Positions 3,069 to 15,227 of a stretch of DNA of 15,277 bases are shown here, piece after piece. The notes beneath the pieces are model-generated. The model saw only the letters and a list, made by a program, of their open reading frames with translations, had not been told where the DNA came from and did not search any database. Location of the stretch: the UHGV virus genome UHGV-0113810; one strand, given 5' to 3'. Source of the stretch: a virus. The position numbers and the translations under genes are program-made. Numbering within the stretch: position 1 is the first letter of the stretch; each line of letters opens with the position of its first letter.

Positions 3069-3147
3069 GTTGATAGATCCAGTAATGACCTCAGAATTCC
3101 ATCTGGATTTGTTCAGAACGCTCGGTCTTGCACACCGGGCGTTTTTT
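3069..3147 (+). ncRNA. oop: OOP-like antisense RNA overlapping the 3' end of cII
   Basis: gttgatagatccagtaatgacctcagaa...gttcagaacgctcgg closely matches my recollection of the lambda oop transcript. It ends in a stem (3118-3126 with 3134-3142) plus TTTTTT at 3142-3147. Antisense to the last ~19 codons of cII. Confidence 0.6.
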
Positions 3148-3390
3148 ATTGGTGAGTCCATCAAGCGCATACTTAAAAGCCCTGCTAATCGGACTGATGT
3201 CTGATGCCATTCCGAAAGCACACAAGACCGAAGCAATAAATCTCCAGTCCGTTCTGCTTATCTTCGATTCATGACAGCCAATCATCTTTGCCAGACCGCG
3301 CTGTGTAAGCGTTGACAGGTTGATGAGTAAATCTGTTTCTGCGCGATCAACGTCGCGCTGTGTTGGCTTGCTGTAACTTGCTTGTGTCAT
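3091..3390 (-). CDS. cII: Transcriptional activator CII (lambda-type C-terminus, divergent N-terminus)
   Basis: C-terminus [21 protein letters not shown] matches lambda CII (..[20 protein letters not shown]). Position between cro and O, TTGC-N6-TTGC site at its start, and oop antisense at its 3' end all fit. Confidence 0.85.
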
Positions 3391-3528: not shown

Positions 3529-3738
<210 letters not shown>

Positions 3739-3826: not shown

Positions 3827-4543
<717 letters not shown>

Positions 4544-4615
4544 TTCCAATTGTGATTAATAAAAAACCGATAGTGCAACATGTTATTGTAAATTGTTGAT
4601 ATAGCAAGGTATCAC

Positions 4616-5518
4616 ATGAGCCAAAATCTTGATTCAACACTAGAAACATACATTTCTTGGCAGTTAGAGCAATTTAAAAATAACTTTTTCCCAAGCTGCG
4701 ACGTCATAGCGTACTACGGTGGTATCTTTCCATGGTCAAAAGAAGTTTACCAACCAAAACTTGAGGCTATTGGGGAGATGGCTAACAGTCGTACCAATAG
4801 ATTTCTAGTTATTATACTCAATACAAATGGTGGCTCTGTTGAGTCTGTGGAAAAAATGGTAGAAATTACAAGGCATTTCTATCAAGAGGTATATTTTATC
4901 ATTCCAGATATGGCCATGTCGGCAGGCACAATATGGTGTATGTCTGGAGATAAAATTTACATGAACTATGCTTCTTCATTAGGCCCCATTGACCCTCAAG
5001 TGCAATCCTCTGACGGTAAATGGGTTCCTGCTTTGGGATACCTTGATAAAGTTGAAGAAATGATTACTAAATCCAGAGAAGGAACCATTACCCAAGCTGA
5101 ACTAATGATGCTTAGTCAGTTAGATCTTGCGCACTTAAGGAGATACGAGCAAGCCAGAGAGCTATCAATAGACTTGCTTAAGAAGTGGCTTGTAGAGTAT
5201 AAATTCAGAGAGTGGACGGTTCATCAAGGTAACACAAAACGAGGAAAGCTAGTTTCCAAGAGGGAAAAAGAAGCAAGAGCTAAAATGATCGCTACCGCTC
5301 TTAGTGACAACGGAAAGTGGCATTCTCACGGAAGAACGATAGGAATAAATACTCTTATCAATGACTTAAGAATTAAAGTAGAAGACTTTACATACGACAA
5401 AGATTTTAGCATGGCGTTAAAAAATCTGCACAACGTCATTAATGAATACATGTATAAGACAAATCGACAGGTTCTTGTTCTGTCTTCATTCCCCTTCTCA
5501 GAACAAAGTGAGTCATAA
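4616..5518 (+). CDS. ClpP/crotonase-fold serine-protease-like protein (SDH / S49-like family), at the position occupied by rexA-rexB in lambda
   Basis: 300-aa ORF on the cI strand between cI and OL/PL. Motifs LVIILNTNGGSVESV and PDMAMSAGTIWCMSGDKIY resemble the oxyanion and nucleophile-serine segments of ClpP/SppA-fold proteases. The region is clearly AT-rich compared with cI. Family assignment is from motif recognition only. Confidence 0.6.
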   Translation: MSQNLDSTLETYISWQLEQFKNNFFPSCDVIAYYGGIFPWSKEVYQPKLEAIGEMANSRTNRFLVIILNTNGGSVESVEKMVEITRHFYQEVYFIIPDMAMSAGTIWCMSGDKIYMNYASSLGPIDPQVQSSDGKWVPALGYLDKVEEMITKSREGTITQAELMMLSQLDLAHLRRYEQARELSIDLLKKWLVEYKFREWTVHQGNTKRGKLVSKREKEARAKMIATALSDNGKWHSHGRTIGINTLINDLRIKVEDFTYDKDFSMALKNLHNVINEYMYKTNRQVLVLSSFPFSEQSES

Positions 5519-5689
5519 ATGAGCAAAGACAAATCACTGACACAGCAAGTGGCAGAAATACTTAGCAAGCAAAAAGTTAGCGAGCAAGGTAAAATGATTC
5601 AATCATTAAAGAACAAAGGATTGATCAACAAGCCTGTTTTTACTTTGGCTTATGGACCTGATACTACAGTCTGCCAAATGCACCAATAA
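5519..5689 (+). CDS. Small hypothetical protein (56 aa), translationally coupled to the protease-like gene
   Basis: ATG at 5519 immediately follows the upstream stop (TAAATG). Translation: MSKDKSLTQQVAEILSKQKVSEQGKMIQSLKNKGLINKPVFTLAYGPDTTVCQMHQ. Followed within 10 bp by an intrinsic terminator. Confidence 0.45.
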   Translation: MSKDKSLTQQVAEILSKQKVSEQGKMIQSLKNKGLINKPVFTLAYGPDTTVCQMHQ

Positions 5690-5698
5690 CAAAACCCC

Positions 5699-5725
5699 AC
5701 CCGGCCTCAGTGCCGGGTTTTCTTT
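5699..5725 (+). terminator. Rho-independent terminator closing the cI / protease-module transcription unit
   Basis: Stem CCCGGC (5700-5705) with GCCGGG (5712-5717), loop CTCAGT, followed by TTTTCTTT. Confidence 0.6.
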
Positions 5726-5876
5726 GCCTCACGTTCGCCCCAAAACACATAACCAATTGTATTTATTTGAAAATTAATAGATACAACTCACTAAACATCG
5801 CAATTCAGATCTCTCGATCACCTCCCAAGCCACACACCCCTGCAAAAAAATAAATCTATATAAAAAACATACAGAT

Positions 5877-5939
5877 AACCATCTGCGGTGATAAATTATC
5901 TCTGGCGGTGTTGACATAAATACCACTGGCGGTGATACT
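5877..5939 (+). promoter_or_regulatory. Left operator OL3-OL2-OL1 with promoter PL (directed rightward in this window)
   Basis: OL3 5877-5893 AACCATCTGCGGTGATA, OL2 5897-5913 TATCTCTGGCGGTGTTG, OL1 5921-5937 TACCACTGGCGGTGATA; -35 TTGACA at 5911-5916 and -10 GATACT at 5934-5939 with a 17-bp spacer. Matches lambda OL/PL. Confidence 0.9.
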
Positions 5940-6007
5940 AAACACATCAGCAGGACGCACTACTCACCAGGGCGGTGAATATACAACGATTCGAATATGA
6001 ATCTACG

Positions 6008-6022
6008 GCGCTGACAAAGCGC
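6008..6022 (+). promoter_or_regulatory. nutL boxB hairpin (GCGCU-GACAA-AGCGC, P22-type)
   Basis: Exact match to the P22 boxB RNA hairpin as I recall it, located in the PL leader upstream of the N-like gene. Confidence 0.6.
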
Positions 6023-6034
6023 AATAACCAAAGT

Positions 6035-6173
6035 GAACTTTGGGGTGTGGTGAAGGGTTCATGGACGGGAATATGTCGCACGTAAAGCGGCGAGGCCTGC
6101 GGGACTATTGCCGAATTGAAGTAGGCCGAAACAGGTCGAAATGGGTCTCCCACCTACCACACCACCAAAGTTC
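6035..6173 (+). promoter_or_regulatory. Long-range stem in the N leader (lambda-type RNase III processing-site architecture)
   Basis: gaactttggggtgtggtg (6035-6052) pairs with accacaccaccaaagttc (6156-6173), enclosing ~100 nt and ending just before the N RBS (caggaggtctatATG). The lambda N leader has the analogous TTTGGGGTGTGTG...CACACACCACCAAAG stem. Confidence 0.55.
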
Positions 6174-6187
6174 ATCAGGAGGTCTAT

Positions 6188-6571
6188 ATGACACGCAGAA
6201 CTCAGTTCAAAGGCAATTCACGTTCTCGTCGTCGTGAGCGTTTAAAGGCAAAGGCATTAGCTAACGGCGTACTGGCCCGCGAAGAAGCAATAAGTTCAGA
6301 AGTATTACACCGCCCTACTCTAAGCAGAGCGCAGATTCAGGCTAAAGGTACTCACGAAACGCCTGAGCGCATAGAAGACGCTAAGCCAATTAAGTTCATG
6401 GCACAGGACGTGATCTGGCAACAGAAAGAATACAGACGCAATCTGGAGCGAGCGGCCATTGTGTACGCGAATGAGTTTGGACATAAGCAACCAGAAACTG
6501 GTGTATGTCTTCCGAACGTAGCTCTTTACGCGGCAGGATACCGGAAATCCAAACAACTGACAGCAAGATGA
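6188..6571 (+). CDS. N: Antitermination protein N (P22 gp24-like)
   Basis: First gene of the PL operon; arginine-rich N-terminal motif GNSRSRRRERLKAKA; C-terminus VALYAAGYRKSKQLTAR resembles P22 N (..ALYAAGHRKSKQITAR). Strong RBS AGGAGG. Confidence 0.8.
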   Translation: MTRRTQFKGNSRSRRRERLKAKALANGVLAREEAISSEVLHRPTLSRAQIQAKGTHETPERIEDAKPIKFMAQDVIWQQKEYRRNLERAAIVYANEFGHKQPETGVCLPNVALYAAGYRKSKQLTAR

Positions 6572-6629
6572 CTTGTGTTGGTCGCCAGAAAACGAAGGGC
6601 AAATCCATCGCATTAATCTGAGGTGGCCC

Positions 6630-6794
6630 ATGAAGAACAGCATCAAGTGCCCGGTATGCGGTCGTGACTTCGATCCACGCACTCCGGTCTGCCACATCAG
6701 CAAGTATCACCAGTCAGAGAAGAACTGCGAGCTGGAGAAGATACGCGATGCCCGGCGGCAATATTTCAAAGTAACAGCGAGTGAGGTTCGGTGA
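6630..6794 (+). CDS. Small Cys-rich (zinc-ribbon-like) protein, 54 aa
   Basis: MKNSIKCPVCGRDFDPRTPVCHISKYH... contains CxxC...CH. GAGG RBS 8 nt upstream. Same strand as the PL operon. Confidence 0.45.
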   Translation: MKNSIKCPVCGRDFDPRTPVCHISKYHQSEKNCELEKIRDARRQYFKVTASEVR

Positions 6795-7132
6795 TGGAAA
6801 ATAAAACGGCTAACGGGATGTACGTACTGCGTGGTGAGCTGAAAAAGGGACTGATAGCGGAGCTGGTAAAGGCATACGACCAGCTGACTCAGGAGTCAGA
6901 AAAATTAAAGATCCTCGGACTCAGGTATAACACCCCTCGACGCATTGTTTATGGCTTTATGTATGAGGTTGCAGCATTAACCGTCAAGGAAATTATGTTT
7001 AAAACTGAGGGTGGCTTTTACATCCCACAGGATGACTTCGAATCGAGCGACGATATCGATTCATTAGCCAAAGAGATCATCGATGCAATTGACTGTAATG
7101 GCGCATTCCTTGAGCGCCTTCTTAAGGAGTAG
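6794..7132 (+). CDS. Hypothetical early-left protein, 112 aa
   Basis: ORF whose start overlaps the upstream stop (TGATG). No recognisable motif. Confidence 0.5.
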   Translation: MENKTANGMYVLRGELKKGLIAELVKAYDQLTQESEKLKILGLRYNTPRRIVYGFMYEVAALTVKEIMFKTEGGFYIPQDDFESSDDIDSLAKEIIDAIDCNGAFLERLLKE

Positions 7133-7134
7133 CC

Positions 7135-7332
7135 ATGAAAAAACTGTATGAAAAACTCCCGGTCGTAGTGCAGGGGGGTCATTTGGGGTCTGCTTATCAC
7201 TGCGGCCATTCTTCTGTCTACCCCGCCAGTCGTCATGTTTCTTCGTTGGTGGTTCAGAGTTTGGGGTGTCTGATCGGCGCAAGCATTACGCACAGAACGA
7301 ATCGAGCGGGTCGAGTGGCCTGCGGTGAATAA
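7135..7332 (+). CDS. Hypothetical small protein; frame uncertain because of a G6 homopolymer at 7173-7178
   Basis: Strong RBS (TAAGGAGTAGCC-ATG). The frame-0 product after the G-run is compositionally odd. The +1 frame after the G-run encodes GVIWGLLITAAILLSTPPVVMFLRWWFRVWGV* (TM-helix-like), ending at 7273. Confidence 0.3.
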   Translation: MKKLYEKLPVVVQGGHLGSAYHCGHSSVYPASRHVSSLVVQSLGCLIGASITHRTNRAGRVACGE

Positions 7333-7348
7333 ACAAAGGGGTGAGGGT

Positions 7349-7531
7349 ATGGAAAATTTGGAAAATGAACTGAAAAGAGTAGTTCAGGAACTGGCCAATG
7401 AAGAAGGCATCAGTTTTGCCGATGCCGTGGACGTTTCGATTAAGACGCTTCGTTACGAAATTCAGCACAGAAAGTCTTTTAATGGGTCGCCTGACCCCGA
7501 TAGAGGCGCATCAGGAGTAGAGGTACGCTGA
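7349..7531 (+). CDS. Hypothetical small acidic protein, 60 aa
   Basis: ATG at 7349 with a GGGGTGAGGG RBS. Translation begins MENLENELKRVVQELANEEG. Confidence 0.4.
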   Translation: MENLENELKRVVQELANEEGISFADAVDVSIKTLRYEIQHRKSFNGSPDPDRGASGVEVR

Positions 7532-7677
7532 CCAAATATCGAAGCGGCAAACAAAAATCGCTGGGGTTTGACGATTGGTGTAACTGGATAGATAGATACG
7601 GAACTTGGTGGGATAAATAACAGGTAACTTAAGCGTATTTACTTTCGCAGCAAACCACTTATTTGAGAGGAATTAAT

Positions 7678-8301
7678 ATGTCATCAATCCGCTTAACTAC
7701 GAGAATGAAAGAGAAAATCGCTCGTAACGCTTTAATTAAGTCTGGGGTTTTCACTGAACTTGAAGAAGTAACAAAGTTAAAGAACCAGCTTGCACTTGAC
7801 GCCAGAGTTATTGCGTTTGGCGGTAAAAAGAAAACTGAGGAAGTGGATCAGTTATCATCCAGGTTAGTAGCTATAAGTGAAGAACTTGAAAAGATGGGAT
7901 GTTCATTTTACTCATACGATGTTCGTTCTACTTCAATTTATCTGACTGTATCTGGCAGAAGGGTTGGATGGCATTCATATGGGAAAGACGGCAACGGCGA
8001 AGATATATTGCTCCCTACTCCAACCAAAGATAAATGCATGTTTGATGCAGAACACGAAATAACAAAAAGGTTTGATGAAATCTGCGCATTGCAACAAAAA
8101 CTTGAAGCCAAGAAAAAGGATATCGAATCAAATGTATGGGCTGCTTTGAACTCAGTCACAACAGTTAAGCGACTTATTGAAGTTTGGCCTGAAAGCAAAG
8201 AATTGCTACCAAAAGAAGCAGACAAAGCAAGTACAGCACTTCCTGCTTTACGGGTAGAAGATTTGAATAAGATGATTGGACTTCCTTCCGAGTCCGCATA
8301 G
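7678..8301 (+). CDS. Hypothetical protein, 207 aa (AT-rich accessory gene in the PL operon)
   Basis: ATG at 7678 with a GAGAGG RBS. Low GC relative to neighbours. No motif I can assign with confidence. Confidence 0.55.
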   Translation: MSSIRLTTRMKEKIARNALIKSGVFTELEEVTKLKNQLALDARVIAFGGKKKTEEVDQLSSRLVAISEELEKMGCSFYSYDVRSTSIYLTVSGRRVGWHSYGKDGNGEDILLPTPTKDKCMFDAEHEITKRFDEICALQQKLEAKKKDIESNVWAALNSVTTVKRLIEVWPESKELLPKEADKASTALPALRVEDLNKMIGLPSESA

Positions 8302-9225: not shown

Positions 9226-9537
9226 ATGATGATTCTGACTCTGAATGATAAGCGTGAAATATCGCAAATCATCGCAAGTTTTACTGATGAAGATTACGAA
9301 CGAATCAACAGTGAAGTTGATCGCCTCTGCAAACGTTGTGACCCAATAAGCGAAATGCTTCGCTCATATAAGCCAGATGAACACACTAAGGACGCTATCG
9401 ACTGGCTGGAAGATGATGACTGTGACTATCAGGAAAAAGCCGCTGAATGGTTCTGGGATGCAATAACCAAAAGAGTTAAGGCTGAATATGCCTTCGCAAT
9501 ATTCAAACGCAGACACATTTTTGGAGAAGCAGCATGA
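9226..9537 (+). CDS. Hypothetical protein, 103 aa, immediately upstream of recT
   Basis: AGGAGAAAG RBS; stop overlaps the RecT start (GCATGA). Acidic; no recognised motif. Confidence 0.5.
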   Translation: MMILTLNDKREISQIIASFTDEDYERINSEVDRLCKRCDPISEMLRSYKPDEHTKDAIDWLEDDDCDYQEKAAEWFWDAITKRVKAEYAFAIFKRRHIFGEAA

Positions 9538-10445
9538 GCAATATCGTTGAATTCGTTAAACAGCAAGAGCAGTTATTCTGCGGAGCATTGACTGAACAGA
9601 CGGTGACATGGGCTAAGGAAAGCCAGTTTGCAATTCAGTATTTCCAGAAAAATGATTACCTGGCTAAAACAGCACTGGCAAATCCAACCAGCGCACAGAA
9701 CGCCATCATCAATGTTGCGGCGATCGGCATCACCTTAAACCCGGCTAGCAAACTGGCTTATCTGGTTCCGCGCGACGGCATGGTGTGCCTTGATATCAGT
9801 TATATGGGATTGCTCCATATTGCAATGGAGTCTGGTGTTATCTCATGGGGTCAGGCAAAACTTGTTCATGCTAACGATACCTATGAGTCAAACGGGCTTG
9901 ATAAAGCACCAACCCATAAATACAACGCCTTCGGTGATCGTGGTGATATCGTTGGCGTTTACTGCACAGTTAAGACGCCAGCAGGTGATTATCTAACGGA
10001 AGAGATGAGTCTGGCTGAAATTGAGGCTGTAAGGAAAACAAGCAAGGCGGCATTCAGCGATAAAGGACCATGGGTAAATCACTGGAATGAGATGGCGCGA
10101 AAGACGGTCGTAAAGCGTGCAAGCAAGTATTGGCCTAAGGCATCACGTCTTGATAGTGCTATTCACGTACTAAACGAAGAAGAAGGTGTATGGACTGAAC
10201 CAGTTATGCCGCACAAATCAGAGGAAGATATCCGCGAAGATGAACGGAAACGCCAGCAGGAAATTATGGAAAAAGCTCAACTTCTTTGTGATGAAATGGC
10301 TCAGGCAGAAAACATGGATGATTTGAAGCGATATTTTGCAGAAGCATATCGCCTGACATCTGGAATGAAATTGCAGCAGAACGTACAAGCCATTTACGCA
10401 GAATGCAAAGCAAAACTGGAGGTTGCCAGTGAGCAAACTATATGA
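9534..10445 (+). CDS. recT: RecT-family single-strand annealing recombinase
   Basis: 303 aa; KGPWVNHWNEMARKTVVKRASKYWPKAS matches the conserved RecT segment (..NGPWVTHWEEMAKKTAIRRLFKYLP..) of Rac RecT as I recall it. Confidence 0.85.
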   Translation: MSNIVEFVKQQEQLFCGALTEQTVTWAKESQFAIQYFQKNDYLAKTALANPTSAQNAIINVAAIGITLNPASKLAYLVPRDGMVCLDISYMGLLHIAMESGVISWGQAKLVHANDTYESNGLDKAPTHKYNAFGDRGDIVGVYCTVKTPAGDYLTEEMSLAEIEAVRKTSKAAFSDKGPWVNHWNEMARKTVVKRASKYWPKASRLDSAIHVLNEEEGVWTEPVMPHKSEEDIREDERKRQQEIMEKAQLLCDEMAQAENMDDLKRYFAEAYRLTSGMKLQQNVQAIYAECKAKLEVASEQTI

Positions 10446-12160: not shown

Positions 12161-12698
12161 CTATCAGGCACTGCGTGAAAAGGCAGAGAAAGCAACGTGT
12201 GGTGTGTGGTCGCTCGAATATGGAGAGGGCCGATTTGATGGTGATGATGCGCTAATTCATCGTGAAGTTGCTGGATATATTCCCATTTGCAGAATTGAAG
12301 GAGCGCATCCTGAAAGCGGTTTCGATGAAGATTTCCAAACTGAACAGCAGGCCAATGCTGAATTCATCGCCGCAGCCAATCCGGCTACCGTCTTGGCGCT
12401 GCTGGATGAACGGGAAAGAAACCAGCAATACATCAAATCCCGCGACCAGGAGAACGAGGATATTGCGCTAACGGTAGGGAAGTTGCGCGTTGAGCTTGAG
12501 GCAGAAAAACAGCGGGCAAAGGATCTGTTTATGGAAAATGCTCGGCTTAAGTCAGGTATAGCCGGTCTGATACACCTCGGTATTCGATATGCAGATGTTG
12601 AGGTCATGAGAATTGCTGGAGATGCCCAGCTTTCTACCCCATGCACTGACAGCATCATAAACAGCATTGCAACAGGCATTCGCATCAAAGGAGAGTGA
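12147..12698 (+). CDS. Ea22-like family protein, 183 aa
   Basis: ALREKAEKATCGVW and FIAAANPATVLALLDERE motifs are typical of ead/Ea22-like proteins; size and position next to xis parallel lambda ea22. Confidence 0.6.
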   Translation: MSKIDYQALREKAEKATCGVWSLEYGEGRFDGDDALIHREVAGYIPICRIEGAHPESGFDEDFQTEQQANAEFIAAANPATVLALLDERERNQQYIKSRDQENEDIALTVGKLRVELEAEKQRAKDLFMENARLKSGIAGLIHLGIRYADVEVMRIAGDAQLSTPCTDSIINSIATGIRIKGE

Positions 12699-12699
12699 T

Positions 12700-13317
12700 A
12701 TGAGCGCTATAACCAAAGAACGTATCAAATTATTCATTAAAAATCCGCTTGATAACGGACTTACTCGTGGCGAACAAATGGAACTGGCACGAATTGCACT
12801 GGCATCACTGGAACGCGAACAGATTCGCCACGAGCATGCCAAATGGTCTGACTCCACATTTGGCTGCGTTGGCCCCATTGGTCCGCTGAAACATCTCTCA
12901 AAAGAGGCACTGGAAGCCGCAGCCGAACCAGACGATCTTAGCGAGTGGGCTGATATGCAGTTTCTGTTGTGGGATGCACAGCGCCGTGCTGGCATCAGCG
13001 ATGCTGAAATTACCGCTGCTATGGAAGATAAATTGAAGATCAACATGGAGCGCCAGTGGCCTGAGCCAAAAGATGGTGAGCCTCGCTTGCACATTAAAGA
13101 ACCCGGCAACTATCCGGTAACTCCGGATGGTTGGATAAGCTGTAGTGAGCGAATGCCCCCTCAAGATGATTGGATTTTAATTTATTCAAAGCACGGCGAG
13201 TATATGGCAGGACAGGTACAAGGGGAATACGTGGAGTTGAGCGACGGCACTTTATCGTGGTTAGGGAACGCCTTGTTCTGGATGCCGCTACCAGAACCGC
13301 CGCAGGAGGTGAAGTAA
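12700..13317 (+). CDS. DUF550/DUF551-like phage protein (dATP/dGTP pyrophosphohydrolase-like N-terminus), 205 aa
   Basis: GGAGAG RBS. C-terminal WISCSERMPP...WMPLPEPP resembles DUF551; N-terminal part resembles the DUF550 region. Recalled from annotation patterns, low certainty. Confidence 0.45.
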   Translation: MSAITKERIKLFIKNPLDNGLTRGEQMELARIALASLEREQIRHEHAKWSDSTFGCVGPIGPLKHLSKEALEAAAEPDDLSEWADMQFLLWDAQRRAGISDAEITAAMEDKLKINMERQWPEPKDGEPRLHIKEPGNYPVTPDGWISCSERMPPQDDWILIYSKHGEYMAGQVQGEYVELSDGTLSWLGNALFWMPLPEPPQEVK

Positions 13318-13960: not shown

Positions 13961-14179
13961 ATGTACTTAACACTTCAGGAGTGGAACGCACACCAGCGGC
14001 GCCCAAGAAGCCTTGAAACAGTTCGTCGATGGGTGCGCGAATGCAGGATATTCCCTCCTCCGGTTAAGGATGGAAGAGAGTATCTGTTCCACGAATCAGC
14101 GGTAAAGGTTGACTTAAATCGACCAGTAACAGGTAGCCTTTTGAAGAGGATCAGAAATGGGAAGAAGGCGAAGTCATGA
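13961..14179 (+). CDS. xis: Excisionase Xis (lambda-type)
   Basis: 72 aa, MYLTLQEWNAHQRRPRSLETVRRWVRECRIFPPPVKDGREYLFHESAVKVDLNRPVTGSLLKRIRNGKKAKS, essentially lambda Xis. Overlaps the int start as in lambda. Confidence 0.95.
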   Translation: MYLTLQEWNAHQRRPRSLETVRRWVRECRIFPPPVKDGREYLFHESAVKVDLNRPVTGSLLKRIRNGKKAKS

Positions 14180-15227
14180 GCGCCGGGATTTACCCCCTAA
14201 CCTTTATATAAGAAACAATGGATATTACTGCTACAGGGACCCAAGGACGGGTAAAGAGTTCGGATTAGGCCGAGACAGGCGAATCGCAATCACTGAAGCT
14301 ATACAGGCCAACATTGAGTTATTTTCAGGACACAAACACAAGCCTCTGACAGCGAGAATCAACAGTGATAATTCTGTTACGTTACATTCATGGCTTGATC
14401 GCTACGAAAAAATCCTCGCCAGCAGAGGAATCAAGCAGAAGACACTCATAAATTACATGAGCAAAATTAAAGCAATAAGGAGGGGTCTGCCTGATGCTCC
14501 ACTTGAAGACATCACCACAAAAGAAATTGCGGCAATGCTCAATGGATACATAGACGAGGGCAAGGCGGCGTCAGCCAAGTTAATCAGATCAACACTGAGC
14601 GATGCATTCCGAGAGGCAATAGCTGAAGGCCATATAACAACAAACCCGGTCGCTGCCACTCGCGCAGCAAAATCAGAGGTAAGGAGATCAAGACTTACAG
14701 CTGACGAATACCTAAAAATTTATCAAGCAGCAGAATCATCACCATGTTGGCTAAGACTTGCAATGGAACTGGCTGTTGTTACCGGGCAGCGAGTTGGTGA
14801 TTTATGCGAAATGAAGTGGTCTGATATCGTAGATGGATATCTTTATGTCGAGCAAAGCAAAACAGGCGTAAAAATTGCCATCCCAACAGCATTGCATGTT
14901 GATGCTCTCGGGATATCAATGAAGGAAACACTTGATAAATGCAAAAAGATTCTTGGCGGAGAAACCATAATTGCATCTACTCGTCGTGAACCGCTTTCAT
15001 CCGGCACAGTATCAAGGTATTTTATGCGCGCACGAAAAGCATCAGGTCTTTCCTTCGAAGGGGATCCGCCTACCTTTCACGAGTTGCGCAGTTTGTCTGC
15101 AAGACTCTATGAGAAGCAGATAAGCGATAAGTTTGCTCAACATCTTCTCGGGCATAAGTCGGACACCATGGCATCACAGTATCGTGATGACAGAGGCAGG
15201 GAGTGGGACAAAATTGAAATCAAATAA
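14157..15227 (+). CDS. int: Tyrosine integrase Int (lambda-type)
   Basis: 356 aa, near-identical to lambda Int throughout (MGRRRSHERRDLPPNLYIRNNGYYCYRDPRTGKEFGLGRDRR...; catalytic region ..HELRSLSARLYEKQ..LLGHKSDTMASQY). Confidence 0.95.
   Translation: MGRRRSHERRDLPPNLYIRNNGYYCYRDPRTGKEFGLGRDRRIAITEAIQANIELFSGHKHKPLTARINSDNSVTLHSWLDRYEKILASRGIKQKTLINYMSKIKAIRRGLPDAPLEDITTKEIAAMLNGYIDEGKAASAKLIRSTLSDAFREAIAEGHITTNPVAATRAAKSEVRRSRLTADEYLKIYQAAESSPCWLRLAMELAVVTGQRVGDLCEMKWSDIVDGYLYVEQSKTGVKIAIPTALHVDALGISMKETLDKCKKILGGETIIASTRREPLSSGTVSRYFMRARKASGLSFEGDPPTFHELRSLSARLYEKQISDKFAQHLLGHKSDTMASQYRDDRGREWDKIEIK

Follow-up and report, generated by a model that had tools for sequence, protein, structure and literature searches.

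What does a lambdoid prophage carry between its repressor gene and its early leftward promoter when rexA and rexB of lambda are replaced by other genes? This question is raised by a stretch of 15,277 nucleotides from the UHGV virus genome UHGV-0113810, here called the window, which is the early region of a lambdoid prophage in the orientation opposite to the standard lambda map. Directly downstream of cI, and on the same strand, are a gene for a serine protease of 300 amino acids and a gene for a small protein of 56 amino acids, its partner. Our best explanation, held with a probability of roughly 0.45, is that these two genes form a self-contained accessory unit with a defence function that is expressed in the lysogen.

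A sequence-only reading of the same DNA had described the pair as a module with lambda-like flanks in the position of rexAB. Both statements agreed with our analysis: cI encodes the expected domains, PR and PL have lambda-type hexamers, OL1 to OL3 and a gene for an N-like protein follow, and the pair lies between cI and the Timm-like terminator and OL-PL, on the cI strand. The two open reading frames (ORFs), the TAAATG at their junction, the two quoted motifs and the candidate nucleophile Ser102 were also found where that reading had put them. The first motif, NTNGGSVESV, corresponds to residues 69-78 of the protease, and the second, MAMSAGTIWCMSGDK, to residues 99-113, which puts a serine at position 102. 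The stop codon of the protease gene (TAA, 5516-5518) is followed immediately by the start codon of the partner gene (ATG, 5519-5521), so that the two genes are translationally coupled.

The protease passes the Pfam gathering threshold for PF01972 (41.0 bits, threshold 31.3, match over residues 64-199). It missed the equivalog cutoff of the NCBIfam model NF047768 (Clp_like_SDH), scoring 54.5 against 250 bits with a match to profile positions 77-161 only. With a score so far under the cutoff, the protease represents a distinct subfamily of the SDH group. An AF2 (AlphaFold2) model built from 32 homologues had a predicted local distance difference test score (pLDDT) of 90.1 and a predicted template modelling score (pTM) of 0.87. 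Its top Foldseek matches were SppA, ClpP and the NfeD protease 1510-N, at probability 1.0 and E = 4e-6 to 4e-4. In a profile search of PDB sequences, Ser102 aligned with the nucleophile Ser97 of 1510-N, and the S97A entry has Ala at that site. These results bear out the ClpP-type fold and the nucleophile proposed earlier. About 160 residues of the C-terminal region are helical and unique.

In the close family of the protease, 58 positions were invariant. When relatives down to 25% identity were added, Gly72, Gly73, Glu79, Ser102, Pro124, Asp126, Gln128, His238 and Arg240 were still invariant. Among them, no candidate catalytic residues other than Ser102, Asp126 and His238 are conserved throughout the range from 100% to 25% identity. 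The predicted catalytic triad is Ser102-Asp126-His238 with a putative oxyanion site at Gly72-Gly73, and the conservation leads us to expect an enzymatically active protease. NfeD/1510-N and SppA (MEROPS clan SK) provide the closest solved folds and sequences, with the nucleophilic Ser aligned, but they are membrane-associated and use a Ser-Lys dyad, whereas the protease in the window has no membrane segment as read from its sequence and its Lys145 is not conserved. An NfeD-like dyad of Ser102 and Lys145 was considered and rejected, since Lys145 is replaced by Gln or Glu in deep relatives. The invariant Ser-Asp-His order, together with the variable Lys145, points to a catalytic set of the SDH-group type, unlike that of SppA and NfeD.

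Weak matches to head-maturation proteases were also obtained (NF045542, 24.6 bits against a cutoff of 120; PHROG 53, E = 1e-6). The sequence-only reading had allowed that the protein might prove to be a structural or maturation protease misplaced by assembly. This is excluded by the scores, which are far under the cutoff, and by the location of the gene, which is in the immunity region and not in the head module in every prophage examined. The arrangement also recurs in many independent complete genomes, which argues against an annotation or assembly artefact. The chance that a misplaced head protease or an artefact explains the locus is negligible.

The 56-amino-acid ORF had been recognized as a coupled gene, which it is, but its wider conservation had been missed. 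A sequence search with the protein returned three clusters, from Enterobacteriaceae only, whereas the protease has 4334 detectable relatives, and the family of the small protein became detectable through synteny alone. In a set of 80 loci from species-representative genomes, a same-strand ORF of 55-90 amino acids follows the protease gene, mostly at a distance of -4 to +20 bp. A hidden Markov model (HMM) of the partner family matched 79 of the 80 loci, including ones left out of HMM building, once each and directly downstream of the protease gene; no further match to it was found anywhere in the flanking DNA of these loci. The partner was also found in 48 of 54 non-redundant viral loci. Protease and partner co-diverge (Mantel r = 0.64, p = 0.001), with a mean pairwise identity of 57% for the former and 20% for the latter. 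A distant clade of the protease (25-32% identity) lacks this partner. The small ORF is a real gene that encodes a conserved obligate partner of the protease across phyla. Gene callers often overlook it; the Proteus copy, for example, was found by eye.

The family alignment of the partner shows an N-terminal helix, a second helix and then the motif G-hydrophobic-hydrophobic-x-K/R-x-x-Y/F-x-L-P/A, after which D-T-I-G-K/R comes in many lineages. The version of the motif in the window is GLINKPVFTLAYGP. The model of the partner (pLDDT 73) has two helices and a C-terminal beta-hairpin bearing this motif (residues 34-47), and a fold search with it gave no significant match (all E > 3). A DNA-binding, ArgR-like partner was rejected because the weak matches in that direction (E = 0.003-0.005) had no support from the fold search. 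As with the protease, reading of the sequence revealed no membrane segment.

The most conserved part of the partner is a short motif of its C-terminal strand, Y/F-x-L-P/A with D-T-I-G-K/R after it in many lineages, and this resembles a recognition or cleavage site. The partner could then serve activation rather than restraint, as a dedicated substrate of the protease, a pro-peptide from which cleavage at the motif frees an active fragment, effector or regulator, or an adaptor that delivers substrates. The nearest solved relatives do have targets within their own operon or chain: stomatin, the operon partner of NfeD 1510-N, is cleaved by it, and SppA binds its own C-terminus. However, an intact partner persists without the protease in several E. 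coli (Escherichia coli) prophages, which would be odd for a pro-effector, and the partner has neither a membrane segment nor a recognizable effector fold. A role as substrate, pro-peptide or adaptor is rather unlikely.

The limits of the module were defined by pairwise comparison with a lambda-immunity prophage carrying a different cargo. The exchangeable unit is 4544-5698 (1155 bp): homology of the flanks ends at 4543, with the cI stop codon, and picks up again at 5699. The sequence-only reading had given the module as 4544-5730. Its left end stands, but the mobile unit ends at 5698 and, since homology resumes at 5699, the terminator is part of the conserved phage backbone and lies outside the cassette. 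The G+C content is 37.9% in the cassette, 45.5% in cI and 45.8% in the downstream flank. The base composition of the cassette is foreign, as its richness in A and T relative to cI had suggested.

Scanning of the sequence from cI to the protease gene revealed nothing that resembles a terminator or a consensus promoter. Co-transcription with cI, which had been predicted from the layout, is therefore likely. The repressor gene is presumably the first gene of a shared transcript from PRM/PRE, and the terminator is presumed to close this cI-protease-partner transcript. Scanning recovered the terminator at the position given by the sequence-only reading, as a stem-loop with a T-run; it is predicted to fold at -13.9 kcal/mol, the z-score of -2.0 being modest, and the homologous element in phage CL707 carries the annotation Timm. 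The spacing between repressor and protease genes is 72 bp in the window and in three other loci (L001, L004 and L006), and DNA homology of the cassette to L001 and L004 extends across this 72-bp leader. A module variant associated with Shiga toxin-producing E. coli (locus L002, 92% nucleotide identity) has an extra gene for a 53-amino-acid 'transmembrane anchored protein' between repressor and protease (5729-5890 of that locus); this gene is not in the window.

The full module was present in 17 of 5426 complete E. coli genomes, always directly after the repressor gene of a lambdoid or P22-like prophage. Besides the lambda-type cI of the window, six other E. coli repressor proteins precede a near-identical cassette, indicating recent horizontal movement. 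Some of the prophages that bear the module have short repressors that lack an S24 domain. In all 19 loci inspected in Enterobacterales and Pasteurella the pair came directly after a prophage repressor; outside E. coli, this placement was seen in Klebsiella, Enterobacter, Proteus, Edwardsiella and Pasteurella. For viruses, the best 80 loci were kept of 167 IMG/VR contigs encoding relatives. Among the 59 upstream neighbours scanned in this set, 27 had Peptidase_S24, 28 had HTH_3 and 8 had Phage_CI_repr, mostly on the same strand as the protease gene, so that about half or more of the scanned viral loci were repressor-adjacent.

Such a placement might mean that the protease is a component of the prophage switch, acting on the adjacent repressor, on an antirepressor or on the repressor of a competitor, and so tuning induction or immunity. 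The protease gene directly follows genes for CI/LexA-type repressors in all the inspected Enterobacterales prophages and in about half of the viral contigs, as this explanation would require. However, the pair is common where no repressor or prophage is near: HTH_3 was found in 2 of the 125 nearest neighbours of non-viral copies, and Peptidase_S24 in one individually tabulated neighbour, this domain being absent from the 25 families listed. Moreover, the identical cassette stands behind unrelated types of repressor, S24 and short non-S24 alike. We regard a role in the prophage switch as very improbable.

Two of the loci have additional features. Locus L004 is on a 111-kb plasmid, pSM107_MCR (NZ_CP130669.1, named for mcr), which bears the module with a complete lambdoid early region; it is a phage-plasmid, or else a resistance plasmid into which a prophage has integrated. 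The Edwardsiella prophage with the module (L105) encodes, at 5980-7918 just past the N gene, a very large protein of 1233 amino acids with an RVT_1 reverse-transcriptase domain, which may be another defence gene of the same region.

The interval between cI and N has already been published as a variable cargo hotspot (Degnan et al. 2007, cited in PMC8585504), and it is described there as holding rexAB in lambda and bstA in BTP1. The immunity region of the window is about 99% identical to its counterparts in HK97, mEp234 and HK106. With the same flanks, the slot holds gp48/gp49 in HK97 and hicAB in mEp234 and HK106. Two further, unrelated occupants were found in lambda-immunity phages: an uncharacterized protein of 301 amino acids, CL70704, between cI and Timm in phage CL707 (L087, 1508-2413), and an uncharacterized pair of 88 and 216 amino acids in the same place in a prophage of E. 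coli LR-29-1 (L005, 3070-3974). CL70704 is not a homologue of the protease, as tblastn with the protease gave no match in an E. coli phage. When the cassette was compared with 50,697 phage records by megablast, nothing matched; tblastn revealed only distant relatives (26-30% identity), which lack the small partner and occupy accessory sites in Mu-like phages of Shewanella and in phages of Gordonia and Porphyromonas.

The module shares with lambda RexAB the slot between cI and Timm/OL-PL, the orientation, presumed co-transcription with the repressor and the form of a two-gene accessory unit. Yet the proteins have no sequence relationship, and a Pfam scan of both module proteins gave only protease families and the weak ArgR match. 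In lambda, RexA is a sensor and RexB forms an ion channel in the membrane, whereas neither module protein has an obvious hydrophobic segment and the effector would be a soluble serine protease. BstA of the Salmonella prophage BTP1, HK97 gp48/gp49, HicAB and CL70704 are likewise lysogen-expressed from directly downstream of a lambdoid repressor, although their proteins are unrelated to those of the module, and BstA acts as a single protein, with self-immunity provided by a DNA element.

In one E. coli prophage lineage the partner is kept while the protease is gone. The last 13 nucleotides of the protease gene persist there, indicating that the protease was lost through deletion. The orphan partner gene (WP_164834428 type) is intact directly after the repressor gene in several E. 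coli prophages (L003, 6001-6232; L099-L102), with a convergent hicAB pair downstream of it; that the orphan serves as an antidote to protease-carrying rivals is speculation. In one other genome the protease gene is interrupted by an insertion sequence (IS) element. No case of protease without partner was seen among the module decay events. This direction of decay is consistent with a protease that becomes a burden once its partner is gone and with a partner that does no harm.

How could the pair work as a defence unit? Both proteins would be produced in the lysogen if, as the gene layout suggests, they are co-transcribed with cI from PRM/PRE up to Timm, and translational coupling would yield the partner alongside the protease. 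The partner would then bind the protease, probably through the conserved C-terminal strand motif, and hold it inactive or narrowly specific. Infection by another phage would remove, titrate or outlast the partner, and the freed protease would cleave a conserved protein of the host or of the phage, so that the infection is aborted or excluded. The net effect would be a protease defence resembling toxin-antitoxin systems in the rexAB slot of lambda. Taken by itself, restraint of the protease by the partner is a tentative part of this picture. A dormant protease of a mobile element that is unleashed on infection has precedents in Lit (of e14) and IetAS; in the latter, the toxin IetS is a serine protease that is paired with an antitoxin. 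The families are unrelated to the module protease, however: Lit is a zinc metalloprotease without a partner, IetS is subtilisin-like and IetA is an AAA ATPase.

We favour defence for several reasons: the protease family, the fold and an intact Ser-Asp-His set conserved to 25% identity; the obligate pairing seen in genome and viral loci and in co-divergence; the placement in the repressor operon with no terminator after cI; a slot that is a known defence position (rexAB, bstA); a decay pattern that fits a costly protease with a harmless partner; and the reported anti-phage activity of a pair of a hypothetical protein with SDH_sah from a phage-inducible chromosomal island. Several observations weigh on the other side. 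In non-viral genomes of other phyla, the pair is isolated, surrounded by miscellaneous genes of which many have housekeeping functions, and there is no defence-island signal, with only 2-3 of the 125 nearest neighbours matching defence models. About 50% identity of the protease is kept across Proteobacteria, Bacteroidota, Acidobacteriota, Gemmatimonadota, Planctomycetota and others, which is unusually high for an arms-race gene. Neither protein matches any model in PADLOC-DB v2.0.0 at E <= 1. The decay asymmetry consists of two independent events only.

Some of these observations would suit a selfish addiction or stabilization module that retains a prophage or chromosomal island and has no anti-phage role. 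The two genes are adjacent, co-directional, coupled and inherited together, which is the layout of type II toxin-antitoxin systems. They form a solitary mobile cassette with variable neighbours (no conserved neighbour other than the partner was found in the 80 genome loci) outside defence islands; the enzyme is conserved whereas its small partner evolves fast; and an orphan partner was left after loss of the protease. Against this, viral copies are concentrated in the repressor operon, suggesting selection for expression in the lysogen, and a related pair of a hypothetical protein with SDH_sah is listed as a defence system. Addiction without defence is unlikely, and it partly overlaps with the favoured explanation, as many toxin-antitoxin modules also defend.

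The very high conservation of the protease across phyla and the many copies between housekeeping genes could also be explained by a physiological protease, or a lysogenic conversion gene, that benefits its host independently of phages through regulated proteolysis in stress response, quality control or the envelope. Yet the distribution is patchy, in E. coli as given above and more widely: in a collection with one genome for each of 185,579 species, matches to the protease were confirmed for at least 515 stretches. The foreign G+C content of the cassette and its recent horizontal movement behind six other E. coli repressor proteins also speak against such a function, which we consider quite improbable.

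Preference for a defence function brings the module close to a known system. The sequence-only reading knew of no characterized system of this composition, and this is likely wrong: the DefenseFinder system FS_HP_SDH_sah, with the gene SDH_sah, exists under these names. We take it to be a pair of a hypothetical protein and a protease of PF01972 (formerly SDH_sah). It was reportedly found on phage-inducible chromosomal islands (PICI) and validated as anti-phage. By name and description, which are the terms in which the two were compared, both join a hypothetical protein with a PF01972 protease on a phage-related mobile element. The SDH_sah domain in the window was identified with the Pfam PF01972 model rather than with the DefenseFinder profile. 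The systems differ in location, FS_HP_SDH_sah being reported from PICIs and the module of the window lying in a prophage repressor operon. A PICI context was looked for around the copies in E. coli, Klebsiella and Enterobacter, but every one lay in a lambdoid or Rac-like prophage, and blastn with about 65% sensitivity did not find a second SDH clade in the complete E. coli genomes. In the literature searched we found nothing on this protease family in phage defence; it goes unmentioned in the DefensePredictor paper and in a domain-centric screen. Judged by composition, the module probably belongs to the same kind as FS_HP_SDH_sah, in a new recurrent location. If the PICI system were a different clade with a different partner, the module in the window would be a new variant. 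The conserved small partner and its motif are new information.

The features of the window are listed in Table 1. The gene for an IS66-family transposase adjoins a DnaB-like helicase gene that is reduced to its N-terminal domain (226 amino acids against about 455-460 in related prophages). The replication helicase has apparently been disrupted by the IS element, and the prophage is probably defective. The replication protein at the O position (299 amino acids) had no Pfam match. A peptide of 10 residues is repeated in it, the copies being about 20 residues apart, which suggests iteron-like direct repeats of an origin inside the gene. A full-length match (243 bits) to Pfam Nmad5, 'nucleotide modification associated domain 5', was obtained for a protein of 212 amino acids encoded in the early leftward operon (7663-8301). 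Further on, an ORF of 216 amino acids (12667-13317) joins a dATP/dGTP pyrophosphohydrolase domain with DUF551.

Table 1. Positions of genes and sites in the window
Feature	Position	Strand	Remarks
IS66 transposase	51-1361	+
Truncated DnaB-like helicase	1365-2045	-
O-like replication protein	2020-2919	-
cII	3091-3390	-
cro	3529-3729	-
PR	3782-3754		exact lambda-type hexamers
Lambda-type CI repressor	3830-4543	+	HTH_3 and Peptidase_S24; outside cassette
Cassette leader	4544-4615	+	72 bp, 29% G+C, with ribosome-binding site of protease gene
SDH-type ClpP-fold serine protease	4616-5518	+	300 amino acids; PF01972
Partner protein	5519-5689	+	56 amino acids; PHROG 28875
Intrinsic terminator, Timm-like	5699-5725	+	bidirectional in form; stem-loop 5699-5718, then T-run
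OL3, OL2, OL1	5877-5937	+	read from sequence and compared with CL707 annotation
PL	5911-5939	+	TTGACA-17-GATACT, exact lambda-type hexamers
N-like protein	6188-6571	+
RecT	9534-10445	+
Integrase	14157-15227	+

Among the effectors of bacterial immunity, proteases are few and poorly understood. The pair described here takes up about 1.1 kb, occurs widely in different phyla and includes a small partner that gene callers and sequence searches alike routinely overlook. The strict association of the two genes, the conserved motif of the partner and the clear predicted catalytic triad provide handles on the trigger and the substrate. It is possible, though we put this forward tentatively, that SDH proteases with partners of 55-90 amino acids make up an unrecognized class of two-component switches spanning phyla, in which the small, fast-evolving partner gates the conserved protease through its C-terminal strand motif. 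On repeated occasions, temperate phages of Proteobacteria would have recruited the switch to serve as an immune effector in their repressor operon, and FS_HP_SDH_sah would be one instance of the class or a different clade. For the lambdoid phages, the module adds a defined and recurrent type of cargo to the hotspot between cI and N.

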